Positions 17,362 to 63,646 of a stretch of 64,000 nucleotides of DNA are shown here, piece after piece. Origin of the DNA: an uncultured Solirubrobacterales bacterium (GTDB taxonomy: Bacteria; Actinomycetota; Thermoleophilia; Solirubrobacterales; 70-9); the NCBI GenBank assembly GCA_963849165.1, contig CAWKGJ010000003.1, forward strand, positions 252,018 to 316,017. The letters run 5' to 3'. The translations under genes were made by a program, and so were the position numbers. A model generated the notes under the pieces. That model did no database searches and was not told where the DNA came from. It saw nothing but the letters and a program-made list of their open reading frames with translations. Positions within the stretch are counted from its first letter, which is position 1. The number at the start of each line of letters is the position of its first letter.

Positions 17362-17440
<79 letters not shown>

Positions 17441-21898: not shown

Positions 21899-22248
21899 AC
21901 GTAGGACAGCTCAGACAGGGAGATATTCTGCTCGTGCCGGTCAAGGATCTGCCGGATGGGCTCAAAGAGGTACCCCGCCAGAAAGGCCGGATCGTCCTCG
22001 CAGAGGGCGAGATTACGGGCCACTTCCACGCAATCGAGGACGAGGCCGCCACGTTCCTTGTCAAGAACCTGGAGGAGGTCGAGGGTCGGTTCCTCGTTAT
22101 CGAGGCAGAGGCCATTACGGCCGAGGCTGCCGGAGTAGACCTGGTCCACCCGGAGCACGACACGATCACCCTGGCCCCAGGCAACTACGAGGTTCGCAGG
22201 CAGCGCGAGTACAGCGAGGCGGGCGGAATCAATCTGGTAGCCGACTGA
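21895..22248 (+). CDS. hypothetical phage protein
   Basis: 117-aa ORF (MNVGQLRQGDILLVP...GEITGHFHAI), ATGA couplings. Confidence 0.5.
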   Translation: MNVGQLRQGDILLVPVKDLPDGLKEVPRQKGRIVLAEGEITGHFHAIEDEAATFLVKNLEEVEGRFLVIEAEAITAEAAGVDLVHPEHDTITLAPGNYEVRRQREYSEAGGINLVAD

Positions 22249-23609
22249 TGGCGACGGCCACCAAGAAGAAGGTCCGCACCGACCCCCTTACCGCTACCGA
22301 GCAGCGAGCCCTAGAGGCCGCTCGTTCGGAGTGGTTGGGCCACGGACTCTCCACTGAGCCGGCCGATAGGCAACAGGCGGAGGCGGGAGCCAAAGCGCTG
22401 TACGCGGTCATGGGTCTCAAGGAGCCGATGATCATCTGGATGGAGTCACCGCTAGGCGGCGCTTGCGCTGCCGCATGGTTCGAGGAGGTGATGAAGAACC
22501 GCGACTTCCGGGATCTGATCGGGGATCAGATCGGGGGTCAGATCCGGGGTCAGATCGGGGGTCAGATCCGGGGTCAGATCGGGGGTCAGATCGGGGATCA
22601 GATCGGGGATCAGATCCGGGATCAGATCCGGGGTCAGATCTGGGGTCAGATCTGGGGTCAGATCGGGGGTCAGATCGGGGATCAGATCGGGGATCAGATC
22701 GGGGATCAGATCCGGGGTCAGATCTGGGATCAGATCGGGGATCAGATCTGGGGTCAGATCCGGGGTCAGATCCGGGGTCAGATCCGGGGTCAGATCCGGG
22801 GTCAGATCTGGGATCAGATCGGGGGTCAGATCGGGGGTCAGATCGGGGGTCAGATCCGGGGTCAGATCCGGGGTCAGATCGGGGGTCAGATCGGGGGTCA
22901 GATCCGAAACGCTTGGTGGGGCCAGCACGAAGCCGGCTGGATCGCTTGGGCGCGTTTCGCTCGGGAGGTAGGGGCCACCTACGACAAGCACCTCGACCGT
23001 GGCCTAGAGGCGATGTCACTCATTGCCCGTTCCAGCGGATGGTGGTGGCCCCGGGAGGGTGTTGTCATCCTCACTGAGCGCCCACAGCACGTTCACCGCG
23101 ACCCAGCCAGTCGCCTTCATAGCGATGAGGGACCGGCAATCATCTACCCAGATGGTTGGGGCGTTTGGGCCTGGCATGGAGTCCGTGTCGAGCAAGAGAT
23201 CATCGAGGACCCAAAGGCCCTCACGGTCGAGCGGATCACCAAGGAGTCAAACACCGAGCTCCGGCGCTGCTACATGGAGATCTTCGGGGCGGCGGACTAC
23301 ATGGCTGCTGCCGGCGGCGAGCTGATCGACAAGGTCCGCGAGCCGGACTTTCCGGGTCTGATTGATGCCGAGTTGTGGCGGATGCCCAACCCTGAAGGCG
23401 GAGAGCCATTCGTCTGCGTCAAGTGCCGGAACTCGACCCCGGAGCCAGACGGCTCGCACAAGAATTACCACCTCTGGGTCCACCCGCAACTGCGTCCGCT
23501 ATTGCCAGACGACACGCTAGGCGATCCGCAGGAGCTCACTGCACACAACGCCCTCGCCAGCACTTACGGCGAACGCGGCGAGACCTACAGGCCGCTGGTC
23601 GAGTCGTGA
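22248..23609 (+). CDS. repeat-containing phage protein: N-domain, 32 x [G/R/W][G/D]QI, conserved C-terminal domain of unknown function
   Basis: ATG 22248 overlaps upstream TGA; C-terminal [15 protein letters not shown]...[23 protein letters not shown]...NTELRR resembles a widespread DUF (recalled as DUF6745-like, low certainty). Confidence 0.7.
22521..22904 (+). repeat. 32 perfect tandem copies of the 12-nt unit [G/C/T]GGG[G/A]TCAGATC
   Basis: Counted unit by unit; only nt 1 and nt 5 of the unit vary; 42 GATC sites. Confidence 0.95.
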
Positions 23610-23842
23610 TCTCACCAGCCATGAAAGCGGCAGAGCGGGCTAGGAAGAAATTCCAGCCCGCCTCTGCCCCGCAGCGCAGGACACTGGCAAGGCTCTCGAA
23701 GAGGGCCGGCATTGAGCTACCCCAGGTCCGCACCAAGAAGCAGGCCGGCAAGGCCCTTGATGGTCTTGAAGCCTTTCTCTCCTCTCCACCGCAGTTGGAG
23801 GGGTTCAGCAGCTCTACAGATCCAACCGGGGGTGGGAAGTGA
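23606..23842 (+). CDS. hypothetical phage protein
   Basis: GTG 23606 (GTGA overlap) or ATG 23621; basic 73-78 aa. Confidence 0.4.
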   Translation: MISPAMKAAERARKKFQPASAPQRRTLARLSKRAGIELPQVRTKKQAGKALDGLEAFLSSPPQLEGFSSSTDPTGGGK

Positions 23843-25554
23843 GCTGGGAGATCCGCCAAGGCGACGCGCTCGATCGACTACGCGAAATGCCCGACGAATC
23901 GGTCCAGTGCTGCGTCACCAGCCCGCCCTACTGGGGGTTGAGGGACTACGGGGTCGACGGACAGATGGGCCTCGAGGCGACGCCCGAGGAGTTCGTGGCG
24001 CAGCTGATTGAAGTCTTCGCTGAGGTGCGGCGTGTCCTGCGGAGCGATGGCACGCTCTGGCTGAACATCGGGGACAGTTACGCAGGGTCTTGGGGCGCGC
24101 AGAGCCGAGAGCACGCTGGCATGCATGCGCCGAATGTCTCGGCTATCTCGGCCAATCAGACCAAGGCGGCCCGCCGTCAGACGCACACCGGCGCCATTCC
24201 CCCGGGCACTGGCCTCAAGCCGAAGGATCTCGTCGGCATCCCGTGGAGGTCGGCTCTAGCCCTATGCGCCGACGGCTGGTATCTGCGCAGCGACACGATT
24301 GAGGAGGTCGAGCTCTACTGCCCATGTGGATGCGGCCACGTCATGGAGGAGCGGATCTGGCGGCACTCACCCGATCGGGAGATCATATGGAGCAAGCCGA
24401 ACCCGATGCCGGAGAGCGTCACCGACCGACCGACGCGGGCCCACGAGTACCTTTTCCTGTTCACGAAGTCGCGGCGCTACTTCTACGACGCCGACGCGAT
24501 CCGAGAGCCTGCGACCTTCGCCGGACCCAACGGCGCTCAGAAGAGTCCGCATAGTCAGGGCTTCGGTCGACGGAGTCCCGAGGAGGAGAAGGTCCGCCAA
24601 GACAAGCAGCGTGGTCACGGTCGACGCCATGACGGCTTCAACGACCGCTGGGACGCGATGACGAAGGACGAGCAGCAGGCGCTGGGCCGCAACAAACGTT
24701 CCGTCTGGACGATCGCCAAGAAGCCGTTCAGCGGCTGGCGACTAGGCGACCGTCGGGTCCGTGTTCCTGCGGATGCCGCCGACGGTGACACGGAGCGCAT
24801 AACGTCAGCAGATTGTCCAGTGCATGGGGATCATCCTGCCCTGGCTCCCACGGCGTCAGGTGGTGGACATGGAGACGATCCGTCGCGTCGCAGTCCTGGC
24901 AGCGATGACCGTCCCGTTCCAGCGCCGCGAGGCGAGCGCGCTCCCACTGACCGGCGCCCCGCGCCGAGCTCTGGGCCTGAAAGTTCGGGTTCGCCTGACC
25001 CTTCGTGTTCTCCCGCTGCCACGCCCCATAGCAGTCGAAGCCGCAAAACGGACCGCGATCCTGGGACCAGGCAGCCATATACGCCTTTCGCTCGAACTGC
25101 GTGCCGCACTGGCGACACGTCAGGGTCACCCGCGTCCGCTGCGCCGCATCGCGGCACGCCCGAGAGCAGAACCGAGCAGGACGATTCGCCCGATCCTCGC
25201 GAGTCTGAAAGTCCGAACCGCACTGTTCACACGTCTTCGTCTTCAGGCGCCCCGGCATGTACTTGCGAGTTCTACAAGGTCAGCCGGATTGACCACTTCG
25301 CCACTTTCCCGCCCGACCTAGTCGAGCCCTGCATCCTCGCCGGCAGCGCCGAGGGCGACACGGTCCTCGACCCCTTCGCCGGCGCGTCAACCACGGGTCT
25401 CGTTGCCCTCCGCCACAACCGCTCCTTCATCGGTATCGAGCTGAACCCGGACTACGTCGAACTCGGACGGCGCCGCATCCTCGACGACGCACCGCTGCTC
25501 AACACGCCAGCGGAGATCTCTGAGCCCCCCATACTGAGAGCGGTCGGCCAGTGA
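23839..25554 (+). CDS. DNA methyltransferase (beta-class N4/N6, SPPY type) carrying a ~180-aa low-complexity insertion
   Basis: CVTSPPYWGLRDYG catalytic motif; KRSVWTIAKKPFSG; C-terminal HFATFPPDLVEPCI...VLDPFAGASTTG AdoMet motif; continuous 571-aa ORF. Confidence 0.75.
   Translation: MSWEIRQGDALDRLREMPDESVQCCVTSPPYWGLRDYGVDGQMGLEATPEEFVAQLIEVFAEVRRVLRSDGTLWLNIGDSYAGSWGAQSREHAGMHAPNVSAISANQTKAARRQTHTGAIPPGTGLKPKDLVGIPWRSALALCADGWYLRSDTIEEVELYCPCGCGHVMEERIWRHSPDREIIWSKPNPMPESVTDRPTRAHEYLFLFTKSRRYFYDADAIREPATFAGPNGAQKSPHSQGFGRRSPEEEKVRQDKQRGHGRRHDGFNDRWDAMTKDEQQALGRNKRSVWTIAKKPFSGWRLGDRRVRVPADAADGDTERITSADCPVHGDHPALAPTASGGGHGDDPSRRSPGSDDRPVPAPRGERAPTDRRPAPSSGPESSGSPDPSCSPAATPHSSRSRKTDRDPGTRQPYTPFARTACRTGDTSGSPASAAPHRGTPESRTEQDDSPDPRESESPNRTVHTSSSSGAPACTCEFYKVSRIDHFATFPPDLVEPCILAGSAEGDTVLDPFAGASTTGLVALRHNRSFIGIELNPDYVELGRRRILDDAPLLNTPAEISEPPILRAVGQ
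24728..25258 (-). CDS. HNH endonuclease nested antisense inside the methyltransferase ORF
   Basis: RDGHRCQDCDATDRLHVHHLTPW...NLLTLCAPCHRRRH plus N-terminal CxxC zinc-ribbon pairs. Confidence 0.7.
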   Translation of the reverse strand: MPGRLKTKTCEQCGSDFQTREDRANRPARFCSRACRDAAQRTRVTLTCRQCGTQFERKAYMAAWSQDRGPFCGFDCYGAWQRENTKGQANPNFQAQSSARGAGQWERARLAALERDGHRCQDCDATDRLHVHHLTPWEPGQDDPHALDNLLTLCAPCHRRRHPQEHGPDGRLVASR

Positions 25555-26473: not shown

Positions 26474-27375
26474 AAACGGCCACCCCCCTCCACACCGTAG
26501 TCACCGCCCTAGAGCAGATGTCCTGTCGGGATCTCGTCAATGCAGGCTTGACGAAGCAGCAGATTGCCGAGGCCCGGGGGGCACTCTCTGGGCCAGCCCA
26601 GGATGGCGTAGAGCGGCTACGAGAGAAGCTGGGCGACGCGATCGAAGACGCCTATTGCGCCCCGGTGCGGCCGCCCGTCGAGGGCGAGGACCCGGCGACC
26701 GTTCGCGGCCTCGCCCGGAGCGCCGTCGTCGCTGACCCCGACCGGATGCGTCACCTCGCTGGGATCACGAAGGCGGCCTGGGAGATCGTCGCCCCCGCCC
26801 CAGACGTAGAGCGTCTAGGTGGGGAGGAGGGGCAGTGCCCCTGTCACGCGGGGCGAGAGGCCGCGATGGTCGAGGCGTCCCCCGGCGCCTGGTGTGACCC
26901 CTTTCCTGGCGATCTCGCGCAGCCGTATAAACGCAGCGGCTACGAGGTCCGCGGTTACCTGCCGCGTCCGACCGCCGAGAACCAGCCCGCTTCCCCTTCC
27001 GAGGAGGGGCTGACCAGCGGCGATATCGGCGGCCTGCTCGAAGCCATCGACTGCCGTCTGGGCGGCCCGGACCCCCTGAAGAATGGGCAGGTGCGGCGAT
27101 ACGGCGAGATCAGGGCGAAGCTCTCCGCTGCCGTGGCGAGCCGCCAACTCGACGCACTTCTTACCGATGAGCCCGCTTCCCCTTCACCAGTAGAGGAGGG
27201 TGACTGGCCGGAGATCACGCTGGTTAGGGCGGTCCCTCGGAGCGCGTCGAACTACACGCGGGCCTACATCGACGAGGAGCCGCCCCTCAGGGAGCGCTTT
27301 GACCCAGAGCTTTACGAGGTCCGCCGCTACGTCCCCGCCACTTCAGATCAAGAGGCTGGAGAGGTGGAGGGATGA
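26470..27375 (+). CDS. hypothetical phage protein with internal duplication
   Basis: 301 aa; YEVRGYLPRP...PASPSEEG repeated as YEVRRYVPAT / PASPSPVEEG. Confidence 0.5.
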   Translation: MKTATPLHTVVTALEQMSCRDLVNAGLTKQQIAEARGALSGPAQDGVERLREKLGDAIEDAYCAPVRPPVEGEDPATVRGLARSAVVADPDRMRHLAGITKAAWEIVAPAPDVERLGGEEGQCPCHAGREAAMVEASPGAWCDPFPGDLAQPYKRSGYEVRGYLPRPTAENQPASPSEEGLTSGDIGGLLEAIDCRLGGPDPLKNGQVRRYGEIRAKLSAAVASRQLDALLTDEPASPSPVEEGDWPEITLVRAVPRSASNYTRAYIDEEPPLRERFDPELYEVRRYVPATSDQEAGEVEG

Positions 27376-27767
27376 AGGGACGGTCGAACTACGACACGGA
27401 CCAGCCCTGGGTCGTCTACCACTACGGCTTGACCCATGACCGCTACTGGCCGCCGTGGCGCTCGACGCGAGTCCTGGGCGTCGCCAAGGTCAAATGTGAG
27501 TGCGCTGTCTGCGGTGAGGTGCGTGTTGTCAAGGCTCAAATCCCCCGGTTCGGTGATCCGAACCCGAGCGGCGCGCATCACCCCGAACGCCTCCGCTTCC
27601 TGCTTGACCACCTTCACAGCGACCGCCCATCGCCGATGGCGTGGGCAAAGCCCCTGCTGAATCCTGCGGCGCACCCCGGGGGCCGGATTGACCTTGATGC
27701 GCTCGCCCTTCGACTCGAAGCCGACCTAGCCGCCGCCACCCTCGACTCCTCAGGGGAGAAGGACTGA
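27372..27767 (+). CDS. hypothetical phage protein
   Basis: 131 aa; CECAVCG motif. Confidence 0.5.
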   Translation: MKGRSNYDTDQPWVVYHYGLTHDRYWPPWRSTRVLGVAKVKCECAVCGEVRVVKAQIPRFGDPNPSGAHHPERLRFLLDHLHSDRPSPMAWAKPLLNPAAHPGGRIDLDALALRLEADLAAATLDSSGEKD

Positions 27768-28138
27768 TGGCGATCCCGAAATCCCTCGGCGAGGTCCCTT
27801 GGGGAGAGCCGGAGCAATGCCCCACCTGCACCGGCGAGGTCCGCCGCCGCGAATACGAAGGCACCACCGAGTTCGACCCGATTCGACTCGACCCGACCGA
27901 TATCGAGGAGTGCCTACGCGTCGCCGAGATTTTCGTCGGGTTCGTCCGCGACAGCGTCAACACGCTCAACAGCTTGGACGACGAGGGCGCGGATGTGCTC
28001 GGCGCCGACGCCAAGCGCCTGCTGATTCTCTGGACCCGGTTCTCCACGATCGCCCAAGCGCGGGTAGAACGAGCTCGGGCCGCAGCTGAGGGGCGGACAC
28101 AGGAAGAGCCTCCTGCTGGCGAGGAGCGTGCCCGATGA
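27767..28138 (+). CDS. hypothetical acidic phage protein
   Basis: 123 aa; CPTC motif; ATGA couplings. Confidence 0.5.
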   Translation: MAIPKSLGEVPWGEPEQCPTCTGEVRRREYEGTTEFDPIRLDPTDIEECLRVAEIFVGFVRDSVNTLNSLDDEGADVLGADAKRLLILWTRFSTIAQARVERARAAAEGRTQEEPPAGEERAR

Positions 28139-28293
28139 ACGGGATTAAGGAGGTCACCGCCGTCCCAGATAAGCAGTGCGACGGCAACGGCACGATCTGG
28201 GTCCCGGTGCTCAAGCTCGGTCGCATCGCATCCGACCCGATTCGCTGCCCCGGGTGTCCTGCGTGTCGGTCGAAGCAGGAGAAGGCACAGTGA
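28135..28293 (+). CDS. hypothetical 52-aa Cys-rich protein
   Basis: ATG 28135 overlaps upstream TGA; CPGCPAC motif. Confidence 0.35.
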   Translation: MNGIKEVTAVPDKQCDGNGTIWVPVLKLGRIASDPIRCPGCPACRSKQEKAQ

Positions 28294-28505
28294 TCCGCCT
28301 GCTCTTCACGATCACCATCACCCTCCTCCTCGCAGGCTGTATAGCCAGCTACCTGGACTCCCCAGAGCGCCAGGTCTATAGGAAGGCCGTAGAGAAATGC
28401 GGCTCTGAGGAAGTGCTGAAGATCTTCTGGCTGGGCTCGAGGAAGAAGCGGGCCTTGGTGATCTGCTCGGGGTTGAACGACGGCGGGGTGGTGGGGGTTC
28501 GGTGA
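28290..28505 (+). CDS. putative lipoprotein
   Basis: GTG 28290 (GTGA overlap); signal plus lipobox ITLLLAGC. Confidence 0.5.
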   Translation: MIRLLFTITITLLLAGCIASYLDSPERQVYRKAVEKCGSEEVLKIFWLGSRKKRALVICSGLNDGGVVGVR

Positions 28506-28624
28506 GCGACTTGAGGAAGTACACCCTGGCTCAAGGCGGCGGCAGCGTCATCCTCCACGTCGCGGAGTCCGTGCATGAACTACGCGCTGCGCTAGCCCCC
28601 TTCGATAGCGAGGAGGAGAAATGA
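28502..28624 (+). CDS. hypothetical 40-aa protein
   Basis: GTGA and ATGA couplings only. Confidence 0.25.
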   Translation: MSDLRKYTLAQGGGSVILHVAESVHELRAALAPFDSEEEK

Positions 28625-28794
28625 GTGGCACCCCGATTCCCAAACTCGCCGAATTGATGATGCTCAAAGAGTCCATCACCTCTGTCTCGCTCTCCCACGA
28701 CCAGGGCTGCGACTGCGATACCTGCAAGGCGGCTCAGGGTGATGAGGAAGCCTTCGCTCGGGTGGTCGACCGGCTGGAAGCGAGCCGCCCATGA
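28621..28794 (+). CDS. hypothetical 57-aa protein
   Basis: ATGA couplings; CDCDTC motif. Confidence 0.3.
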   Translation: MSGTPIPKLAELMMLKESITSVSLSHDQGCDCDTCKAAQGDEEAFARVVDRLEASRP

Positions 28795-29045
28795 CCACCC
28801 TCAGACCTTCACAGATAGAGACGCTGAAGCTGGTCGATTCGTTCCCGGACAAGCAGGTCATCGCCTCGGATCTCGCCCACGCCTTCGACACCACGATCCG
28901 CTCCGGCGAGAGTCGCCTCGCTCGCTTAGAGGCATGTGGGTCACTCGACTACGTCCGAATCCCTTGGCTCAACGGCCGGTGGATCTTCGTCTATCGCCTC
29001 GCCAATAAGGGTCGATCAGAGCTACCGAGCGGGGGAGAGCAGTGA
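28791..29045 (+). CDS. winged-helix DNA-binding protein
   Basis: 84 aa; MarR-like wHTH pattern (VIASDLAHAFDTTIRSGESRLARLEACG). Confidence 0.5.
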   Translation: MTTLRPSQIETLKLVDSFPDKQVIASDLAHAFDTTIRSGESRLARLEACGSLDYVRIPWLNGRWIFVYRLANKGRSELPSGGEQ

Positions 29046-29230
29046 AGCGCTGTAAGGCATCGGGGAAGCGCAAGTTCAGGATGAAGACCGACGCGTTGAT
29101 CACGTCCCTGCACGTCTCTGCCAGCCCAGTCGGTGCAACTACTGGCGGGGCTTATGTCTGTCCGCATTGCGGGTTCTGGCACCTGACCAGCAAGGTGAAG
29201 GCCCTCTCCGAGACCGGCGGTGGGTCGTGA
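29042..29230 (+). CDS. small zinc-ribbon protein (paralog of 59648-59902)
   Basis: K-x-F/Y...YVCPHCGFWHLTS, compare VYRCNSCNRFHITS. Confidence 0.45.
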   Translation: MKRCKASGKRKFRMKTDALITSLHVSASPVGATTGGAYVCPHCGFWHLTSKVKALSETGGGS

Positions 29231-29379
29231 GCGGCTGCGTTCCGAACTGCATCGCGTGCCGCTGTGACGCCGATTGGCCGATTCGGCTCCCGGACCTTTC
29301 GGGCGTTGATGCGCTCGCGGCCAAGTGGGAACGCCTGCGCCGCGAGCTCGCAGACCCATACCTAAAGGAGCAGGGATGA
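29227..29379 (+). CDS. hypothetical 50-aa Cys-rich protein
   Basis: GTG 29227 (GTGA overlap). Confidence 0.3.
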   Translation: MSGCVPNCIACRCDADWPIRLPDLSGVDALAAKWERLRRELADPYLKEQG

Positions 29380-29888
29380 AGCTGAACAAGAACACCCGCA
29401 AGGCCCTATACGAGGCAGCACCGAAGACCACCGAAATCACCTGGCCTCAGGACGCTCCAGAGCCAAGCTGGGGCCATCGCTACCCGGTCTACACCGAAGA
29501 GGGCAACTACGCCTTCACGGTCCGTCTGGAAGGCTCCCACAAAGGTCCCTACGAGACGAAGGCCACGGTGAGGATCGACTCCGACCCGACGCGAGTGCTG
29601 CCAGGGCTGAAGGGCGTGAGGACCGACGCCGGCGACTACGAGACTGAGCCGGAGCGCGTCGACCGGGCGTTTGAAGACGAACTCGCGATGACGGCGCGGT
29701 ACGGGTCACGGGTTAGGCGGGCTGAAAGGCGCCCGGTTGAACGCCAAGTCGAGCTTGAAGGCGAACTCCAAGAAGCGCGCAGCAGCGGCCAGTCAGGGCG
29801 AACCCGAAAGCTGGAAGCGAAGCTCTCCCAGCACCACCGACGCACCGAAGACACGCAGGCTGTTTTGCCGCCTCAGCAAGCGGCATAA
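29376..29888 (+). CDS. hypothetical phage protein
   Basis: 170 aa, ATG 29376 overlaps upstream TGA. Confidence 0.5.
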   Translation: MKLNKNTRKALYEAAPKTTEITWPQDAPEPSWGHRYPVYTEEGNYAFTVRLEGSHKGPYETKATVRIDSDPTRVLPGLKGVRTDAGDYETEPERVDRAFEDELAMTARYGSRVRRAERRPVERQVELEGELQEARSSGQSGRTRKLEAKLSQHHRRTEDTQAVLPPQQAA

Positions 29889-29993
29889 TGGCGACGATCT
29901 CTGTATCACGTGGCTGGTCAGCGGCTCTTGGCGGAGAGGCAAAGGAGTTCGCCGTGCCGGAAACAGCAGCGCGCAACACTCGCACCTGGCGTC

Positions 29994-30149
29994 GTGAAAT
30001 GTCGCCTTCAGCGGCTCGGCTTCGCGGACTACAGCGAATACCTGCGCTCCCCGGCTTGGATCGACAAGCGCAACGAATACTGGTCGGCACCGGAGACCCA
30101 GAAGGCATGTGAGGTCTGCGGAAGCCCTGAGCGTCCGCTGGTTCTGCAC
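29994..30149 (+). pseudogene. HNH endonuclease, N-terminal half (interrupted)
   Basis: YLRSPAWIDKRNEYW...CEVCGSPERPLVLH ends at the first His of the expected HH dipeptide; downstream reading is junk. Confidence 0.5.
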
Positions 30150-30268
30150 GGCAATTGTGTAGCCGCGACACGTACCGCTCTGCGCCGCCCCCCGCCTAGC
30201 CTTCCCGCCATCAGAAAATCAATGGCCCCGGCGGCGGTGGAACGCCCCGGGGCCGTGGCACCGAAAGG

Positions 30269-30535
30269 TTGGGCCTCTCGATGCATCACAAGGCTATTCC
30301 GCGCCCTGAGGGCGGCGCTATCGAACTCGAGGACGTGCAGCGCGTCGTGCTCGGCCTGGTCCTCGCTGAACACCCTTGTCAGATGACCGTCTCGGAGATC
30401 GGGAGGGAGATCGACAACCGCCCCGCTGTTGATCAGGCCGTTGACGATCTTGGGCGCGCCGGCCTACTTAGACGGGTCGGTGCATCGGTCCTCCCGACCC
30501 GTGCCGCGCTCCACTTCGACCGGCTTGCGGCATGA
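30269..30535 (+). CDS. winged-helix protein (cassette gene 1)
   Basis: VVLGLVLAEHPCQMTVSEIGREI...AVDDLGRAGLLRRVG pattern; start TTG 30269 or ATG 30281. Confidence 0.45.
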   Translation: MGLSMHHKAIPRPEGGAIELEDVQRVVLGLVLAEHPCQMTVSEIGREIDNRPAVDQAVDDLGRAGLLRRVGASVLPTRAALHFDRLAA

Positions 30536-30807
30536 TCGACGTAGCCGGTCGTTTTGGCGACAACCTCGCCCGCGTTCGTCGCGAAGCCGACCTCTCTCAG
30601 GACGAGACCAGCATCCGCGCCTCGGTCCACAGGACCGAGATCAGCCAGATCGAGAGAGGTCTGCGGATTCCCCGGATCGACACGCTCGTGAAGCTCATGG
30701 GGGCGCTTGAAGCCACCGCCGGTGAGCTGCCGGAGGGGATCGCGTGGACGCCCGGTGAGTCTCGACGCGGCTCCTTCAAACCCGAGGATGAGAGCACCCG
30801 CCCCTAA
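30532..30807 (+). CDS. XRE-family HTH regulator (cassette gene 2)
   Basis: NLARVRREADLSQDETSIRASVHRTEISQIERGLRIPRIDTLVKL; ATGA overlap with gene 1. Confidence 0.7.
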   Translation: MIDVAGRFGDNLARVRREADLSQDETSIRASVHRTEISQIERGLRIPRIDTLVKLMGALEATAGELPEGIAWTPGESRRGSFKPEDESTRP

Positions 30808-30930
30808 GAAGGGGTCAACAGGGAAACGCCGGGATGCGTTGTATAGTCCTAAGCAGGAAAGGGCTTCCGGGCCGGCCAAACTGGACGGCCGACCCGGGTC
30901 GACACCCTGTTAGTCAGTGACCCAGGTACC

Positions 30931-31308
30931 TTAGGTATGACCCTCCTGGGAACGCGTGGCCATTGACAGTGGCTCGCCATTCCCATTCTCTGGAGCCCCC
31001 GGCAGCGCGGCCTGACCGGCCTCGCTTTCGGAAGCAAGTTCGTAGTAGCCCTTGGCGGGCCTGGAAAGCTTGTTCTCCTTGACCAGGGTTGAAGCCATCA
31101 TCTGAAGACGATGGTGGTCTTTCTTGGAGTCGGTCAGCCAGCCCCGCTCCTGAAGATCCTTGTTCAACTCGGTCAGTCTGATCCCCAATCCCTGCGGCTT
31201 CTCGGTCATGACGGACAGGACCGCCTTCCGAAGCGGGGGGATCTCCTTGCCGGGGGTGCCGTTGGTCGCCTGGCCGTTCGTGGGCATCTCGCCAAGCTGA
31301 CGCGTCAA
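30931..31308 (-). CDS. winged-helix / HARE-HTH-like protein (cassette gene 3)
   Basis: LRKAVLSVMTEKPQGLGIRLTELNKDL...KLSRPAKGYYELA; lower-GC codons. Confidence 0.45.
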   Translation of the reverse strand: MTRQLGEMPTNGQATNGTPGKEIPPLRKAVLSVMTEKPQGLGIRLTELNKDLQERGWLTDSKKDHHRLQMMASTLVKENKLSRPAKGYYELASESEAGQAALPGAPENGNGEPLSMATRSQEGHT

Positions 31309-31348
31309 GCCATAAAGAGTCCGCCAAGTGCTCTGCTCTTCCCTGCAC

Positions 31349-31687
31349 CACCGAACTTACGATCGAGTAGGCGAAGAGGAGTTCGCGGAATTGGCGGCGC
31401 TCTGTCCCGGCTGCCACGAACTAGTCCACATTCTGGAGCGCCGAGGCGATCTTGACGGCATAGACGCCGACCTGTCCTCCCTGGCCGATCCTTCACGGTC
31501 CGTCAAGTTTCCAGAACTGACGCTTGACCTCGCGACCAAACGAGGGCTTCTGGCAATCGAAAGCCGCCTCCGCAACCAGTACAAGCGCCTCTCTGGGGAT
31601 CATCAAGTGCGGACCAAGAAGACCATCGTCCGCAACATCATCTCGCTGGAGAAGAAGCGGGAATCGCTATTGGAGACTTCGCCATGA
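31349..31687 (+). pseudogene. HNH endonuclease, C-terminal half (interrupted); open as ORF from GTG 31328
   Basis: HRTYDRVGEEEFAELAALCPGCHELVH is the core HNH/CxxCH motif without its upstream CxxC. Confidence 0.5.
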
Positions 31688-31848
31688 CCAACCAGGCAAT
31701 CGCAGAGAAGCTGAAGCCCCGACCAACGATCTGGTGCAACGAAGGCAAGCACGACGAATGCAAAGGCTGGGGCGAAACGATTTTTGACCCTCCCCGCGTC
31801 GTCGTCCAGTGCAATTGCCCATGTCACGAGCAGAACCGCCATGACTGA
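31684..31848 (+). CDS. hypothetical 54-aa Cys/His-rich protein
   Basis: ATGA overlap; WCNEGKHDECKGWG...CNCPCHE. Confidence 0.35.
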   Translation: MTNQAIAEKLKPRPTIWCNEGKHDECKGWGETIFDPPRVVVQCNCPCHEQNRHD

Positions 31849-32383
31849 CCTAGCCGAGAGGCCGAAGAAGAAGCAGATCCACAAGAGCTACGGCACCGAA
31901 GAAATCAGCCGCGGACTCGTAGCGATCGCCTACGCCAACGGGAACACCCGGCAGGCCGAGCGCGACTTAGCCGAGGACGGTCTAAGGATTGACCACAACA
32001 CGCTCCACTACTGGAAGACCAAGAACCACGCCCAGGAGTACGAGCGCATCAGAGCCGAAGTCCTCCCCAAAGTCAGGGAGGAAGCAGGCGATCAACACCT
32101 AGCCCTCGCCCGCCGGCAGATGGAAGCCTCAGCTATGGCCACTGACGAGTGGATCAAGCGCCGTCACGAGCTAGACCCCAAGGACCTCTCCACGGCAGCC
32201 CGCAACTTCGACGTAGGTTCAGGCATCCACTCCCAGCACGCCCAGGTCTTCCACGACCAGCCCACCAGCCGAGTAGCAGTGGACCTCTCAGGCACGCTCA
32301 AAGAGCTGAAGAGCATGGGCGTAGATCCTGCGGTGGTTTTAGAGGCCGAGGTTGTCAGCGAGGAAGACGTCTCGGATGAGTGA
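31841..32383 (+). CDS. putative terminase small subunit
   Basis: HTH-like N-part (ISRGLVAIAYANGNTRQAERDL), size, and position ahead of the packaging/structural genes. Confidence 0.5.
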   Translation: MTDLAERPKKKQIHKSYGTEEISRGLVAIAYANGNTRQAERDLAEDGLRIDHNTLHYWKTKNHAQEYERIRAEVLPKVREEAGDQHLALARRQMEASAMATDEWIKRRHELDPKDLSTAARNFDVGSGIHSQHAQVFHDQPTSRVAVDLSGTLKELKSMGVDPAVVLEAEVVSEEDVSDE

Positions 32384-32778
32384 GGCCAGCGCCCATATGA
32401 AGAGAGAAGGCCGGTGCGCGACGCTCAGCCTACGTGGTGTCCCTTGCGGTCGTGAGGCAGGCCATACAGGCTCCCACGCTCACGGACTGGCCAGCCTCGG
32501 ACGTACAAACGCGCGTGACCCATCCTGACCCCCAGCTAGTCAGGCTTGCAGTCAAGGCAAGCCCCTTTCGGCTCTCGCAAGCCAGGTCTCCTAGGTCTCA
32601 ATCATTAGACAAGGCGCGACTCCGAACACTCTCCGAACATCGGAGTCCGGATCACGTATAAGGGGGAGGGGGAAGGGGCAAGCGGCTGCGCGTGGGCTAT
32701 ATAGAAATTAGACCCCCGACTGACATTTCCCAGACAAACGGCCTTTGTAGTGTCAATACAGTCTGGTACTGTCAATAC

Positions 32779-32880
32779 ATGGCTAGAGAGCGGGCAATCC
32801 AGATCCGAGTCTTCGATCACGAGTACGCAGTGATCGGCGCCGAAGCGCAAGAGCGCGCTCGCCGCCAACTCGGCCTGTAG
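32779..32880 (+). CDS. possible 33-aa ribbon-helix-helix-like peptide
   Basis: MARERAIQIRVFDHEYAVIGAEAQERA; ATG abuts the second TGTCAATACA repeat. Confidence 0.25.
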   Translation: MARERAIQIRVFDHEYAVIGAEAQERARRQLGL

Positions 32881-32939
32881 TTCCCACCGCCTTCCGATTC
32901 TCCTGGCCCACTTGGGCCATCTCTACGTGAAAGGACTCC

Positions 32940-33173
32940 ATGAGCACCAAGACCACGAAAAAGCCTGCTGCCAAAAAGCCCTCAGCCCCGGCCAAGAAGG
33001 CGGCTCGGGTCAAGGACATCGTCACCTATTGCCTTCCCAGCGGTGGTGGGGATGTCCCGGCGATCGTCACCGCTGTCGACGGGAACGAGGCATGCCTGAC
33101 CGTCTTTGCAACCGTCGGTCCCTACGTTGCCCACGACGTCACTCACGGCACCAAGGCCGGGTGCTGGCGTTGA
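32940..33173 (+). CDS. hypothetical phage protein with Lys/Ala-rich N-terminus
   Basis: 77-aa ORF. Confidence 0.45.
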   Translation: MSTKTTKKPAAKKPSAPAKKAARVKDIVTYCLPSGGGDVPAIVTAVDGNEACLTVFATVGPYVAHDVTHGTKAGCWR

Positions 33174-33346
33174 ATCGCCGACAGATCACTCAGACTGCGA
33201 TGAAGCAGGCGCCATTCACCCAAGGTCCCCGATTCGGCGGACCAAGTAAAGGTCGTCCCGCTAAGCCGCTGAAACCCATCAAGGGCTCAAGGGTCCGGGG
33301 CATCCCTGGGGCGCAGTACCTCGCAGGGATGAAGCGCGGGCGCTAG

Positions 33347-35155
33347 ATGCCTCGTCGCGGGCCTGGATCGGAAAGCGCCGGCTACCACTACGACGCAACC
33401 CCAAAGCGTCCCGCGCCTACGAAGACGCCCGTAGTCGCCCCCAAGCCTTCAGAAGCCGCCAGGGGCCCGGCTGGGGATTACGTAGGCGCGGGAGCCGACT
33501 ACGCCCAAGCAGTGCGTACGCTGCCACCCAAAGCGCGAGCGGTCACCGAGGCGGCTACCAGACGTTCCAGACAGGCCGCCCGGGATAAGAGACAGCGAGT
33601 TCGTGCGGTCGCCCAGACTCGCCAGAACGCCACTAAGCGACAACGCTTAGCTACGAGATCCGAGAAGCGAGTTCGACAGACCGAAAAGGCAGTCAAGGCC
33701 AAGCGCTTCGAGCCCAACCCGGCGAAGGCGATCATCTCCTCGAAACTGAACCCCGTAGCGAAACCTCCGACCTTCAAGGGCAGGCCCACGGCCGGAACTC
33801 CGACTCGTCAGGAACTTCGGAAAGCAGCGAGTGCAGGGACGCTCAAGGTGAACCGAAAGGGCTCTGTCACCACCCCCGCCGTGCGCGAAGCGTCACGGAC
33901 TTTGAAACAGGCCAAGAAGGCAGCTCGCAAGGCAGCGCCGCGAGTAGAGGGACCGCTGACCAGAGGCCAGAAAGTTTTTGCCCGGCGTCTCGCTAGGAAG
34001 ACTCCTCTCTCACCGCGCGTTATCGCCGCTCAGGAGCTTGCCGAGCAGAGTGGAGAAGCTGCGGCCCGGCGAGAGGCGGAGGGCAACCACAACTGGTTGA
34101 ACATCGGCTACTTCGACTCTGGGCCGGGACAGCTCACCGCGGATCAGACCTGGAGCAATCCCAAGAGCGCCGCCGACGCTACCGCCCGTTTCCTCGAGGG
34201 CAGGCAGTTCGGTGCGAGCGAGGGCATCAAGGCCATCCTCCCGGCGGCGAAGGGAAAGCCGGATCGGGAGCAAATCGCGGCGATAGCGCGCTCCGGGTGG
34301 GCGACGAATCCCGAGTACCAGTCCTTGATCGAAGGGACTCACGATCTTGTCAGCGCCAAGCCGGGGAATCCAAAAGCGGCCAAACGCCTGAAACGAGCCC
34401 AAGTGAATGCGGCCAAACTTGGGTTGCGTGCCGCCCAGCCCAAAGGAACCTTGGGACCGCCGCCCAAAAAGGTCATCACCCGTTTCAAGGCCGCTCGGGT
34501 CGCGGCCAAGGAACTGGAGAAGGCGAAGCTGCCCTACGTCTGGGGCGGCGGCCACAACACCGGAGACGTTGATCTCGGTTCTGGCGTCGACTGCTCAGGC
34601 GCGGTCTCCTACGTGCTCCAGAAAATGGGGGTCAAGCTTCCCGGCGGCGTCGTCTCGGGGGAGATGGGCAGCTACGTCAAGCCCGGTCCCGGCGCCGTGA
34701 CGGTCTTCTACAACCCGACGCATACCTTCATGCGGATCGGGAACGAGTACTTCGGAACCTCCGCTTCCAACCCAGGCGGTGGCGCAGGGTTCATCCCGAC
34801 CTCTGTGGCTGAGCCTGAGGCGCTGAGCGGCTCCTACTCCGTGGGCCACATTCCCGGTCTCGGCAAGAAGGTCGCCCTGCAACTCGGCGTCTCAGCTTCT
34901 GCTGGCGGCGTCCCCTCTTTCCCCGGCATGACCCTCTCGTCAAGCGGCACGACGGCCACTATTGATCAAGGTGCCGGCGCGACGCAGAGCAAGCCGGGAT
35001 TCTCCAAGGTACCGATCAAGCTCACTCGCCAGCAGAAATACAGGCGCGCCACCCGCAAGCTCAGAGAAGCGGGGGTAGGCGGCGATACGCAGGAGCCGGA
35101 AGTCAGCGAGACGATCAAGGCGTTGGAGGAGAAATACGGCGCCAGGGCGGCATGA
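33347..35155 (+). CDS. two-domain peptidoglycan hydrolase (glucosaminidase-like plus NlpC/P60 endopeptidase) with basic N-terminal region
   Basis: NHNWLNIGYF...IARSGWATNPEY (glucosaminidase-like); LPYVWGGGH...GVDCSGAVSYVL...HTFMRIG (NlpC/P60 Cys-His). Confidence 0.75.
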   Translation: MPRRGPGSESAGYHYDATPKRPAPTKTPVVAPKPSEAARGPAGDYVGAGADYAQAVRTLPPKARAVTEAATRRSRQAARDKRQRVRAVAQTRQNATKRQRLATRSEKRVRQTEKAVKAKRFEPNPAKAIISSKLNPVAKPPTFKGRPTAGTPTRQELRKAASAGTLKVNRKGSVTTPAVREASRTLKQAKKAARKAAPRVEGPLTRGQKVFARRLARKTPLSPRVIAAQELAEQSGEAAARREAEGNHNWLNIGYFDSGPGQLTADQTWSNPKSAADATARFLEGRQFGASEGIKAILPAAKGKPDREQIAAIARSGWATNPEYQSLIEGTHDLVSAKPGNPKAAKRLKRAQVNAAKLGLRAAQPKGTLGPPPKKVITRFKAARVAAKELEKAKLPYVWGGGHNTGDVDLGSGVDCSGAVSYVLQKMGVKLPGGVVSGEMGSYVKPGPGAVTVFYNPTHTFMRIGNEYFGTSASNPGGGAGFIPTSVAEPEALSGSYSVGHIPGLGKKVALQLGVSASAGGVPSFPGMTLSSSGTTATIDQGAGATQSKPGFSKVPIKLTRQQKYRRATRKLREAGVGGDTQEPEVSETIKALEEKYGARAA

Positions 35156-36708
35156 ACAGGTTTCGTGTTCCGAGCCATCTACAGGGGAACAAGCAGCTAG
35201 AAGCCAAGCTCCGAGATGTGGTCGAGGCGGTGAGGATCAACCCGCTTTACGCGTACAACAACCCCGACCTCTCTTCCAAGGTCAACCTCAAGCAGCTCGC
35301 CTTCAATCGCGTCAAAGCCCCGGTCCTCGGAACGAAGGCGATGATCGCGGGAAATCGCTCGGGCAAGACCTACTGCTGCAAGGCAGACGACGTGATCCAG
35401 GTCGTGCCCCGCGAGGAAGTCCCCCCACACCTGATCGATTGCAAGAAGTTCGAAGTCCCCTGTCATATCTGGATGGGCGCACCGAAGTATTCCAAGCACG
35501 AGGACACCACGATCCCGACCCTTCGGCGGCTGATCCCGAAGAACCAGCTTCGCAACGGCAACTTCGACAAGTCTTATAGCTCCCAGTCGCGCCAGATCCG
35601 ATTGGAGTGCGGATCGACCATCGGGCTGAAGACCTACGACCAGGACATCGACGCCTGGGCCTCAGCGGAGATCCACCGCATTGACTGGGACGAGGAGCCC
35701 AACGGCGCCAACGGGCGGCGGATGCGTTCGGAGGCCCGAGCACGACTGATCTCCACGGGTGGCGACGAGATCATTGGCATGACTCCGGTCCTAGGGATTT
35801 CCACCTGGGTCTATGACGATGTCTTCGAGCGCCGCCACGAGCTAGGGATCACCGTCCACCAGATGGACATGCAGGACAACCCTTGGAACACGCCTGAGGC
35901 AATCGAGGAGTACCTGTCGGGCCTGAGCGATGAGGAACGCCGGGCTCGGGAAACCGGGGAATTCGTCCACTTCGGGGGCCTCTTCTTCGAAGAGTTCCGA
36001 GAAGCCCTACATGTGGTCGACATCCCGCCGGTCGAAGCCCTTCGCCAGCAAGACATCGTCGTCTCGATTGATCCCGGCCTCCGCCATACGGGCGTGACCT
36101 GGAGTGGATGGGACTCCGACAACAATGGACTCTTCTTCGCCGAGTACTTCCCGCCGACGACGAACGTGCCAGACATTGCCAGGGAAATTCACCGCCGCAA
36201 CAAGATGTGGAGCCTGAGAGAACCGACCTTCGTCATCGACCCGTCCTATCGAAATCTGACGACCGAAATCCATGCTGACGCGGTGCAGGCTAATTACGCC
36301 CGCGAGGAGATCTACGCGCAGCCCGGCAATAACGACCGCCGCGCTGGCATCCTTGAGATCAAGAAGCGGTTGCAGGCAAAGGACGCTCAGGGCAATCCCC
36401 ACCCCACCTTGCTCTACGCCAAGCCCGACCCAGATCGCCCAGACCTCGGTGTGCCGCAGTTGATCAAGCAGACCGAACGCTACCGGCGCAATCCCGATGC
36501 GGCCGATGAATGGCAGGCGGTTCCGCAGGATGAGCACACCCGCTTCGACCTTGTTGACAGCAAGCGCTACGGCGTGATGAGCCGGACCTGGGAGATCCCT
36601 GATGGCCCTGCCGAACGCCCTCCCCCTTCCCCCGAATACGGGTACGAGCCTCCGCTCGACCTAAGCGAGTTCCAAACCGAGGCTCCGCCCCTCGGGGACA
36701 TGTCCTAG
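35152..36708 (+). CDS. terminase large subunit
   Basis: Walker A-like IAGNRSGKTY, acidic Walker B region, C-terminal nuclease-like half, size and position. Confidence 0.85.
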   Translation: MNRFRVPSHLQGNKQLEAKLRDVVEAVRINPLYAYNNPDLSSKVNLKQLAFNRVKAPVLGTKAMIAGNRSGKTYCCKADDVIQVVPREEVPPHLIDCKKFEVPCHIWMGAPKYSKHEDTTIPTLRRLIPKNQLRNGNFDKSYSSQSRQIRLECGSTIGLKTYDQDIDAWASAEIHRIDWDEEPNGANGRRMRSEARARLISTGGDEIIGMTPVLGISTWVYDDVFERRHELGITVHQMDMQDNPWNTPEAIEEYLSGLSDEERRARETGEFVHFGGLFFEEFREALHVVDIPPVEALRQQDIVVSIDPGLRHTGVTWSGWDSDNNGLFFAEYFPPTTNVPDIAREIHRRNKMWSLREPTFVIDPSYRNLTTEIHADAVQANYAREEIYAQPGNNDRRAGILEIKKRLQAKDAQGNPHPTLLYAKPDPDRPDLGVPQLIKQTERYRRNPDAADEWQAVPQDEHTRFDLVDSKRYGVMSRTWEIPDGPAERPPPSPEYGYEPPLDLSEFQTEAPPLGDMS

Positions 36709-38099: not shown

Positions 38100-38404
38100 C
38101 TTACCTCGCATGTTTCTGTGTTGCTCTCCTAGTTGCCTTTGTGTTGCAGCAGTGGAGCCACAGGGCCGAACGGAAGGCAGAGCGTGCGGCTTTTGCTGAG
38201 GAGCGCCAGCAGTGGGTCCGCGAGCGCCGAGACCTGAACAACCGGATTCAGATGCCAGAGGCGGCACCCTTCCTACTGGAAGACCAAGAACCATCGGATG
38301 ACGACATGCCAGTGATGCCCGACTTCGCGTTGGATGAGGCCGAGCTAGAGAAGGCACGACAGGCTTTGACTGAGGCTGGCTACGAAGAGGGGCCGGCGCT
38401 CTAG
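38096..38404 (+). CDS. hypothetical membrane protein
   Basis: N-terminal TM LACFCVALLVAFVLQQW, acidic tail. Confidence 0.45.
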   Translation: MTYLACFCVALLVAFVLQQWSHRAERKAERAAFAEERQQWVRERRDLNNRIQMPEAAPFLLEDQEPSDDDMPVMPDFALDEAELEKARQALTEAGYEEGPAL

Positions 38405-40452
38405 TGCCAACTCTCGCAGCCAAAGTTAAAAAAGCCGTCATGCAGACGGTGGCCGAGGAACTGAAAGCCCCGGCTGAGGTCGACGCTCGGGTCAAGCGCG
38501 GCAAGGAGGCGATGTCCGAAGGGGCGCCCAAACGGAACGAGTGTCTGCGCTTCGCCCGAGGCCGCCAGTACTCCTGGGTCGACTCCCAGAACACGATCCG
38601 CGAGCAGGAGACGACCTCGGACTACGAGCGCCGCGGCGGCAAGGCTCGCCATCGCGTCCGCAGCGTCCGCAACTACATCTTCGATCATGTCGAGGTCGAG
38701 GTCGCCGGGGCCACCCAGCGCGTCCCCGGCTATGACATCGCCCCGACTTCCACCGAGCCCCGCCGTATCTCCGCCGCCCGTCTAGCTCGCAAGGCCATCT
38801 ACTACGGCTATGAACAGTGGAGCCTCGATCAGGCCACCGAGCGCACGGTGCGCTATGCCGTAGTAGCCAACGAAGGATTCGCTTGGCCCTACTTCGACAA
38901 CACGGTCGGCCCCTACATCGAGACCGATGTGCTGGATGAGAAAGGTGAACCCACCGGCGAGAAGAAGACGGTCGGGCAGGGCGAGATCAAGGTCCTGGTC
39001 TACGGACCCAACGAAGTCTTCTGGGAGCCGGGGCTGCGCTTTGACGAGTCGCGCTGGCACGCGATCGAGCAGGCCCGTGACATCGATTCGGTAATGGAAA
39101 CCGATGGCTATGTGGGCGGGAAGCTTGATGCCGACGCCCAAAAGGCCGAAACCTCAGACCCCGACGCCTCACAGGAGCGCTTGGTCCTCGTCACCGAGTA
39201 CTTGGAGCGTCCCACGCGCAAGCGCCCGAACGGCCGCTGGATCACCTTGGCGAACAACCGCGTGATCATCCCCGAGCGCGCCTACCCTTGCCGCGACGGC
39301 GAGGGCAAGGTTCTGGATGAGCCGGTCTTGCACGAGCTGCACTACGCCGAAGACCCCGACACGGGTCGCAACATTGGCCCTGTCCAGTTCGCCATCGACC
39401 CCCAGCGTCAGCTGAACCATGCGGTCTCCAAGATCGCCGAGTGGGTAAACCTGATGCTGAACCCGCAGTTGATCATCCAGAACGGGAAGGTGCTCTCGGG
39501 AAAGCTGAACGACGCGCCGGGCGCAGTGGTGCGTATCGCTGGAGCGGGGGAAATCAAAGTCCGGGAGATCCCTCAGATTCCACCCGAGCTATTCCGCCAG
39601 AAGGAAGAGGCGATAGCTGACATGGGGAGGATCTTCGCCCAAAACGACATCCCCAATCAGGTCGAATCGGCCAAAGGTATTCAGTTTGTCTTAGAAAAAG
39701 ACTCGTCCCGACGCGCGACCTTCTATAAGAACCTCGCCAAATTTCACGCCCGCCTAGCTCGCCACTGCCTCTACCTGGTCCAGCGCCATTACACCGAGCC
39801 GCGCTTGCTGAAGATCAGGGGTGAGGAAGGCGCCTTGGAACCGATCCAAGACTTCCTTGGTGCGGAACTGCTTGGCGAGGTCGATGTGAGGGTCACCGCC
39901 GACTCGCTCGAACCTCGCACCCGCGAGTCGATTGAAGCCAAGATCCTGGCCTTTGCAGATCGAGGCTGGGTCTCTCCCCACGAAGCCATGGCTGCGATCA
40001 ACAGCGGCACCGCAGAAGCCCTCGTCCAGTCCTACGAAAAAGATATTGCCCGAGCGAATCTGATCATCCAGAAGGTCAAGGAAGGCCCGAAGGTCTTGTT
40101 CGGCACGGCACCAAGGCGCCCGTTCTCTGACGAGGACCCGGGCATTGACGAGGAGACGCAGCTTCCTCGCGAATTCATCCCTGGTTGGATGCCGCGTTCC
40201 TTCGACAACATCGCGGTCCAGAAAGCGGTGATTGCCGACTGGATGAAAGGTACGGAGTACGACGACTTGGAGCCGCCGGCCCAAGAGGCAATGAACGCTG
40301 TCTACGACTCCTTCCTGCAACTGGAAGCTAAGCAGCAGGCCCAAGCCGCCGCTGCACAGATGGAGCAGGCCGAATCGCTGGGCACGGCCAACGCCGCCCG
40401 CCCACAGACGCCGCCCCCGACTCCAGACCAAGCCGCGCTGAGTCCTGCGTAA
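38404..40452 (+). CDS. putative portal protein
   Basis: 682 aa; assigned by size and position (before scaffold and capsid); no motif checked. Confidence 0.6.
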   Translation: MPTLAAKVKKAVMQTVAEELKAPAEVDARVKRGKEAMSEGAPKRNECLRFARGRQYSWVDSQNTIREQETTSDYERRGGKARHRVRSVRNYIFDHVEVEVAGATQRVPGYDIAPTSTEPRRISAARLARKAIYYGYEQWSLDQATERTVRYAVVANEGFAWPYFDNTVGPYIETDVLDEKGEPTGEKKTVGQGEIKVLVYGPNEVFWEPGLRFDESRWHAIEQARDIDSVMETDGYVGGKLDADAQKAETSDPDASQERLVLVTEYLERPTRKRPNGRWITLANNRVIIPERAYPCRDGEGKVLDEPVLHELHYAEDPDTGRNIGPVQFAIDPQRQLNHAVSKIAEWVNLMLNPQLIIQNGKVLSGKLNDAPGAVVRIAGAGEIKVREIPQIPPELFRQKEEAIADMGRIFAQNDIPNQVESAKGIQFVLEKDSSRRATFYKNLAKFHARLARHCLYLVQRHYTEPRLLKIRGEEGALEPIQDFLGAELLGEVDVRVTADSLEPRTRESIEAKILAFADRGWVSPHEAMAAINSGTAEALVQSYEKDIARANLIIQKVKEGPKVLFGTAPRRPFSDEDPGIDEETQLPREFIPGWMPRSFDNIAVQKAVIADWMKGTEYDDLEPPAQEAMNAVYDSFLQLEAKQQAQAAAAQMEQAESLGTANAARPQTPPPTPDQAALSPA

Positions 40453-63595: not shown

Positions 63596-63646
63596 CGGCC
63601 TGTCACGCCGGAGGTCGCGGGTTCGAGTCCCGTCGCTCCCGCTCCC
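63596..63646 (+). repeat. attR core: 51-bp copy of the tRNA-Asp 3' part
   Basis: Identical to 17390-17440. Confidence 0.9.

Follow-up and report, generated by a model that had tools for sequence, protein, structure and literature searches.

The stretch of DNA considered here (64,000 nucleotides; below, the window) comes from an uncultured Solirubrobacterales bacterium (GenBank assembly GCA_963849165.1, contig CAWKGJ010000003.1, positions 252,018 to 316,017 of the forward strand) and carries, inside a prophage, a gene of the HNH family which is interrupted by an insert of about 1.2 kb related to insertion sequences (IS) of the IS1595 family. In an earlier note on this DNA the gene was described as being split exactly within its His-His dipeptide by a cassette with the hexamer CTGCAC at both junctions. 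The features of the locus are as follows (aa, amino acids; ORF, open reading frame; IR, terminal inverted repeat; GC3, G+C content by codon position).

29994..30149, + strand: 5' half of the HNH gene, encoding CxxC and the first of the two His; when joined, the ORF gives a Pfam HNH match and is colinear with relatives
30142..30149: left copy of the expected 8-bp duplication, TTCTGCAC, which abuts the IR-B tip and whose last 6 bp are CTGCAC
30150..30177, + strand: terminal inverted repeat IR-B, GGCAATTGTGTAGCCGCGACACGTACCG, the sole IS end in the window
30269..30535, + strand: passenger ORF of 88 aa with a coding GC3 pattern and an ATGA overlap with the next gene
30532..30807, + strand: XRE-family helix-turn-helix regulator of 91 aa (Pfam HTH_31, 9e-10; HTH_3, 5e-9)
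30867..30898, - strand (orientation of the 174-aa gene): terminator-like G+C-rich hairpin followed by a U-rich tract, with compensatory changes in 5 stem pairs in a 10-copy alignment
30931..31342, - strand: 5'-truncated gene of a 174-aa coiled-coil and winged-helix protein, codons 39-174 (homologues 171-175 aa)
31343..31348: CTGCAC, the probable remainder of the right duplication (6 of its 8 bp), with the presumed deletion endpoint 2 bp inside the duplication
31349..31687, + strand: 3' half of the HNH gene, with the second His, CxxCH and the C-terminal tail, assigned by Pfam and alignment
31352..31365: SOS-box-like palindrome CGAACTTACGATCG, covering the HNH codons R-T-Y-D-R and standing 3 bp (CAC, the second His) from the duplication

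When positions 30150-31348 (1,199 bp) are removed in silico, CTG-CAC is fused to CAC-CGA with the frame kept, and the joined HNH ORF of 164 aa runs from GTG at 29994 to a stop codon that ends at 31687; an alternative GTG start is present at 29910 and the true start is uncertain. The two copies of CTGCAC occupy 30144-30149 and 31343-31348, so that the coordinates of the hexamer and of the in-frame join, as claimed in the earlier note, were reproduced. By itself the hexamer is weak evidence, since the + strand of the window has 21 occurrences of it.

The joined protein reached 21.6 bits with the Pfam HNH profile PF01844 (cut-off 21.4) over profile positions 1-45 of 47, the match spanning the junction, and several PHROG HNH families were matched as well. 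Scanned singly, both halves remained below the PF01844 cut-off, the left one giving no HNH match and the right one 12.6 bits, and a contiguous CxxC...H(H/N)...CxxCH beta-beta-alpha-metal motif at the threshold of this profile was found in the joined ORF only. The joined protein is colinear, through the conserved LHHRTYERVG, with nine relatives that lack the interruption (P0002-P0010; identity in the alignment 36-48%); in this set C39, C42, H52, H53, Y56, R58, and G60 are near-invariant, and C71, C74, H75, and H79 are invariant. Alignment across the junction also holds for HNH genes of Streptomyces phages, over residues 12-83 of the joined protein. Neither the restored frame nor the colinear homology is accounted for by chance, and the sequence evidence indicates a single HNH gene interrupted between its two His codons rather than two genes. 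The Pfam match and the unbroken alignment thus bear out the claim of a gene split within His-His, 164 aa long once joined, and the reading of the two ORFs as independent genes was not borne out when both halves were checked against the HNH profile. A megablast search of 27000-36000 against 50,697 phage records gave no match and thus no near-identical empty site, and no relatives were found when viral contigs were scanned with the HNH alignment.

The insert and its full-length relatives

The first 26-28 bases of the insert match, in inverted orientation, sequences at both ends of full-length elements. Copies of these elements were recovered from contigs of Solirubrobacterales-type metagenomes and metagenome-assembled genomes (MAGs), and nine of them were delimited at both ends. 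They are listed with their coordinates, their 8-bp target duplications and, where one is present beside the insertion, the position of the palindrome CGAAC-N4-GTTCG.

L001: 5853-8480; duplication CCGCGATT; palindrome 5828-5841
L002: 6607-9332; duplication TCGATCCG; palindrome 6582-6595
L003: 4609-7123; duplication CCGCCCTT; palindrome 7135-7148
L004: 4646-7291; duplication ATGCCTCA; palindrome 4621-4634
L007: 2752-6286; duplication AAAAAGTA
L009: 3646-6688; duplication CCCGTTCA; palindrome ~3621-3634
L010: 3607-6334; duplication AGAATGCC; palindrome ~3582-3595
L013: 3126-5704; duplication GCCCGGCG; palindrome 3101-3114
L014: 137-3612; duplication CAATTCCA; palindrome 112-125

The nine copies are 2.5-3.5 kb long, with inverted repeats of 26-29 bp which start with GG(C/G)AA(T/G)TGTGTA; the element ends carry GGCAATTGTGTA, and the repeat pattern is GGSAAKTRKGTA-N5-RRCACGTAC. 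Each copy is flanked by a perfect 8-bp duplication, the sequences of the nine duplications being all different, and this fits the 8-bp repeats reported as the norm for IS1595-family elements (PMC12561309). From IR-A the order is a small ORF, the transposase gene, a divergent gene of a 174-aa protein, a terminator, a variable passenger block, and IR-B. On every recovered contig long enough to show an adjoining gene, the 174-aa gene was found between the divergent transposase gene (293-313 aa) on one side and the variable block of small genes, usually with an XRE gene, on the other. The transposase genes are annotated with PF12760 (Zn_ribbon_IS1595) and PF12762 (DDE_Tnp_IS1595) in the contig records, and a scan of the L004 transposase confirmed both and added NCBIfam NF033547 “IS1595 family transposase” with 178 bits (cut-off 75). 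The L007 copy is divergent; it is 3.5 kb long, carries a 253-aa ORF as an additional passenger, placed between IR-A and the transposase gene, and encodes a longer transposase (313 aa).

The structural model of the 174-aa protein (mean predicted local distance difference test score, pLDDT, 74) consists of a long N-terminal helix (4-55), a disordered linker, and a winged-helix domain (75-146), and its best fold matches, which are weak, are all DNA-binding winged helices, namely, the Rok DNA-binding domain, linker histone H1, and Z-alpha. Scans with this protein gave one locus in genomes and two in metagenomes, the sole match in the genome collection being an uncultured Solirubrobacterales MAG, while the source names of the XRE relatives point to Solirubrobacterales and Actinomycetota. 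The lineage from which the window insert descends appears to be unannotated within the IS1595 family.

The homology of the insert to these elements extends over its whole length at the DNA level. The IR-B core of L004 recurs without a difference at positions 30150-30175 (26 bases), L004 7295-6115 aligns with window 30146-31341 with gene order and intergenic region conserved, and window 30434-31347 is 85% identical to L001 8234-7318. The homology to L001 and L004 ends at 31342 (...GCTCTGCTCTTCC), where the native copies go on with TGCAG or TGCAA, and beyond this point the window reads CTGCAC-CAC-CGA, in which the 6 bp that would end the right duplication lead into the HNH gene. Missing relative to L004 are about 1,469 bp, comprising the first 38 codons of the 174-aa gene together with the divergent promoter region, the transposase gene, the small ORF, and IR-A; also missing are 2 bp (TT) of the right duplication copy. 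Of the expected duplication the window has TTCTGCAC on the left and CTGCAC only on the right.

No second match to IR-B was found in the 64 kb at up to 3 mismatches (0 matches expected by chance), and a repeat search across the insert for an inverted-repeat pair gave chance-level pairs only. The statement of the earlier note that the insert has no inverted repeats holds in so far as no pair exists, but the left end is in fact a true terminal repeat of an IS, which the note overlooked. In the same way no recombinase, and in particular no IS1595 transposase, was found in the window insert, as had been said, which makes the window copy a derivative and not an autonomous member of the family; the picture of a self-contained cassette fails, however, since the full-length copies carry a transposase. 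A miniature inverted-repeat transposable element or another non-autonomous derivative is characterized by two functional ends and multiple copies of the short unit, whereas the insert has one end and no other truncated copy was present in the database.

Codon-position GC supports three genes in the insert. The 88-aa ORF had no match in Pfam, PHROG, or NCBIfam, and the XRE gene has counterparts at the equivalent position in L001, L002, L004, L009, L013, and L014. Some relatives (P0026, P0027, P0108; also P0060) encode a single fusion protein of about 170-190 aa in place of the 88-aa ORF and the XRE gene. The leftmost 160 bp of the insert are L004-like and the XRE region is L001-like, which makes the passenger block a mosaic. 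PADLOC gave generic control-protein matches to the XRE gene only, and a reading of the insert as a defence system was discarded; a promoter and terminator scan of the insert was uninformative. The XRE operon may still be expressed.

The minus-strand gene was called as an ORF of 125 aa (30931-31308), while all 14 of its homologues are 171-175 aa long and cover the query fully, the closest one, P0011, being 99% identical over the remaining part. Upstream the frame extends as ...EEQSTWRTLYGLTRQ, matching P0011 from residue 39, and then runs into HNH sequence and a stop codon. Given the length of the homologues and the match to P0011 from residue 39, the right boundary of the insert cuts the 174-aa gene, the first 38 codons of which are gone, and the winged-helix gene, being left with neither start codon nor promoter, is probably a pseudogene. 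The sole truncated homologue in the protein database, P0146 (118 aa), is the window's own ORF.

The XRE and 174-aa genes converge, and the intergenic region that separates them (30808-30930) is conserved like coding sequence across 10 copies and contains blocks without variation, among them ACTATACA (on the window's + strand, TGTATAGT). The hairpin at 30867-30898 is probably a terminator. The idea of a guide RNA in this region was considered and rejected, the terminator-like hairpin being the only covarying structure.

The palindrome beside the insertion sites

In eight of the nine full-length copies the palindrome CGAAC-N4-GTTCG lies exactly 3 bp from the 8-bp duplication, in seven of them on the IR-A (transposase) side and in L003 on the IR-B side, and its extended consensus is mostly ACGAACATATGTTCGCAT. 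The corresponding box of the window has one mismatch to CGAAC-N4-GTTCG and stands on the side where IR-A would have been, so that with 0 or 1 mismatches the palindrome is found at nine of the ten insertion sites. Boxes with at most one mismatch are infrequent otherwise: 2 occur in the 64-kb window and 14 in 172,651 bp (the window with L001-L012), half of the latter (7) flanking insertions, and L013 and L014, which are outside this count, each add one insertion-flanking box.

This palindrome at 31352-31365 is presumed from its position to have been the targeting signal for the insertion into the HNH gene, and its codons belong to the conserved HHRTYxRVG motif of the HNH family. The break exactly within His-His is then explained by the target geometry, in which R-T-Y-D-R forms the box, the second His codon forms the 3-bp spacer, and the first His closes the duplication. 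At 31372-31385, 6 bp downstream of this box and likewise within the HNH coding sequence, stands another box-like sequence, CGAAGAGGAGTTCG (1 mismatch), and the window has no further match of this kind.

The LexA operator of M. tuberculosis is TCGAAC(N4)GTTCGA and is similar to the B. subtilis box (PMC3381160). The motif flanking the element, CGAAC(A/G)TATGTTCG, fits the consensus core of this Gram-positive and actinobacterial operator, whereas the window box is intragenic and has one mismatch, the likeness being one of sequence only. It is a tentative proposal, on balance somewhat doubtful, that the Solirubrobacterales IS1595 lineage homes to LexA operators and inserts 3 bp from the box, guided by either the 174-aa protein or operator-bound LexA, with the HNH gene as an off-target coding mimic. 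A full-text literature search brought up no publication on an IS with SOS boxes as its target, which is no proof of novelty.

At several loci the palindrome lies directly upstream of genes, including DUF1508 and a radical-SAM gene adjoining a DNA ligase gene. The small DUF1508 gene (L001 8494-8736, L002 6320-6556, L013 2842-3078) adjoins three IS copies and has the palindrome in its upstream region; in L001 the IS stands between the box and the DUF1508 gene, and in L002 and L013 it stands beyond the box. Regulation of DUF1508 by the SOS system is a possibility in these bacteria.

Origin of the insert

The insert is very probably an immobile relic of an IS1595-family insertion sequence of about 2.6 kb. 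In the proposed history the full element would have transposed into the prophage HNH gene, whose codons CAC-CGA-ACT-TAC-GAT-CGA (H-R-T-Y-D-R) imitate the palindrome, and the insertion would have set the 8-bp duplication TTCTGCAC so that it ended on the first His codon. A later deletion of about 1.47 kb would have taken 38 codons and the promoter of the 174-aa gene, the transposase gene, IR-A, and 2 bp of the right duplication; the transposase may have made the initial cut at IR-A, and end-joining may have sealed it. Such a cut is suggested by the deletion endpoint, which is only 2 bp from the former IS tip, and a transposase-made break at this end is a matter of speculation. The outcome would be a one-ended fragment of 1,193 bp flanked by CTGCAC. 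Of the two origins that the earlier note had offered for the hexamer, a target-site duplication and a microhomology crossover, the former stands in modified form, since CTGCAC is probably the remainder (6 of 8 bp) of the duplication TTCTGCAC, and the latter was not upheld. With one end and no transposase the relic cannot transpose, and it has no means of precise excision.

Several points weigh against this history and against the targeting that it includes. The order of insertion and then deletion is a deduction, and no full-length or empty allele of the prophage was found among phage records and viral contigs. The parental junction was reconstructed from copies 78-85% identical and from protein, the right junction has neither microhomology nor a recognisable footprint, and a random deletion ending 2 bp from the IS tip is improbable. 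Deletion models with microhomology (CTTC, CTTCC, TGCA) were also tried, and none of them gives the observed junction without an extra event. As regards targeting, L007 has no palindrome nearby, which shows that the preference is not absolute, and the flanks of L002 and L013 are orthologous, as are those of L009 and L014, which reduces the sample to about six independent loci and the window.

A one-step origin by aberrant transposition was weighed against the two-step history. Here a full-length copy would have provided a transposase in trans, which used IR-B together with a cryptic end within the 174-aa gene and inserted the 1,193-bp unit directly, and CTGCAC would be a true but atypically short duplication of 6 bp. 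The 6-bp repeat is indeed perfect, the left junction is canonical relative to the palindrome, and the right end read inward from 31343, GGGAAGAG, agrees in 7 of 8 bases with the repeat tip GGGAAGTG, a score reached at 2 of 949 positions. However, it is the HNH side and not the IS that supplies the third G of GGGAAG (native copies have CAGGA(A/G)G), and past the tip the similarity to the repeat falls to 11 of 26 bases, rank 41 of 949. Moreover, the duplications are 8 bp long in all nine full-length copies, and no other copy of such a mini-element is known from the database, where homologues are full length except for P0146 of the window itself. Taken together these data make the one-step origin improbable, though not negligibly so.

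Capture without any transposase, in which a random IS-bearing fragment was pasted in at CTGCAC by illegitimate or microhomology-mediated recombination, would account for the lack of a transposase and of a second end in the window, and the 6-bp repeat could have acted as the microhomology. This explanation is nevertheless very unlikely, because the left breakpoint coincides to the base with the tip of the IS repeat and the site shows the signature geometry of palindrome, 3 bp, and duplication, which among 64,000 positions about 2 sites x 2 sides would allow by chance; in addition, the donor IS has no CTGCAC at the breakpoint, the native copies reading CC-TGCAG or CT-TGCAG. The exact restoration of the frame upon removal of the insert might also be expected of a programmed intervening element, such as a group I or II intron, an intein, or a developmentally excised cassette that restores HNH. 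This is scarcely credible for the present locus: no Rfam family was matched at E <= 1 over 29000-32500, and thus no group I or II intron model, an intein is contradicted by the presence of three distinct genes that differ in strand and frame, no recombinase is present, and the content is accounted for by IS homology.

Related systems and the host prophage

As an answer to the puzzle of the split gene the relic is ordinary, being a decayed member of the known IS1595 family. Passenger genes in this family have reportedly been described by Siguier, Gagnevin and Chandler (2009) for the ISNwi1 and ISNha5 groups. The present lineage shares with these groups the Zn-ribbon and ISXO2-like DDE transposase (NF033547), repeats that start with GG, 8-bp duplications, and extra genes, but differs from them in having a conserved divergent 174-aa gene with no family assignment, a variable XRE-rich block, and insertion at a fixed 3 bp from a 14-bp palindrome, and the window copy further differs in being a one-ended fragment. 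The coiled-coil and winged-helix accessory gene and the fixed-offset insertion beside an SOS-box-like sequence set the lineage apart from the described IS1595 groups.

Association with palindromes is known from the IS3 family, where IS1397 and ISKpn1 insert in the repeated and extragenic palindromes REP/BIME (repetitive extragenic palindromic sequences and bacterial interspersed mosaic elements). The likeness is that insertion is tied to a short chromosomal palindrome and not to a random site, whereas the family is another one and these elements insert within REP/BIME, unlike the present element, which inserts beside a LexA-box-like palindrome at a fixed offset. A different preference, for A/T-rich 8-mers, has been reported for ISApl4 (PMC12561309).

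What seemed to be a cassette with neither ends nor recombinase would thus be a decayed insertion sequence, and the interest lies in the target specificity of the element, which can account for the His-His break without any special biology of the HNH gene. Target-specific DDE elements are rare and useful, both for models of target selection and as possible tools, and an IS seeking LexA operators, if true, would link transposition to the DNA-damage regulon, with site-directed insertion either rewiring or riding the SOS regulon.

The HNH gene and the IS relic lie in a segment of about 46 kb bracketed by an exact direct repeat, an integrated tRNA-Asp prophage. Its main features outside the HNH locus are as follows.

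17390..17440: attL, 3' part of tRNA-Asp, an exact 51-bp direct repeat
35152-36708: large terminase, downstream of HNH
38404-40452: P22-like portal, downstream of HNH
41466-42677: major head protein, downstream of HNH
62278-63549: tyrosine integrase, adjoining the attR copy
63596-63646: attR, an exact 51-bp repeat of attL

Tail genes also lie downstream of HNH. Terminase-associated phage HNH endonucleases are represented by the HK97 gp74 type, and the window gene is alike in that it codes for a small HNH protein of the pattern CxxC...HH...CxxCH and directly precedes the packaging genes of a tailed prophage; it is unlike in being interrupted and presumably inactive, and its relatives are hypothetical proteins 36-48% identical to it. 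HNH proteins at this position commonly assist the terminase, and since the gene is interrupted, packaging is probably disabled; the interrupted HNH gene is taken as a pseudogene and the otherwise complete prophage as probably packaging-defective.

A 602-aa protein with NlpC/P60 and weak glucosaminidase matches is encoded at 33347-35155, after the small genes downstream of HNH and before the large terminase gene; for a cell-wall hydrolase this is an unusual spot. The early region of the prophage encodes a 685-aa DUF6745 protein (21552-23609) and a 571-aa N6/N4 DNA methylase (23839-25554).

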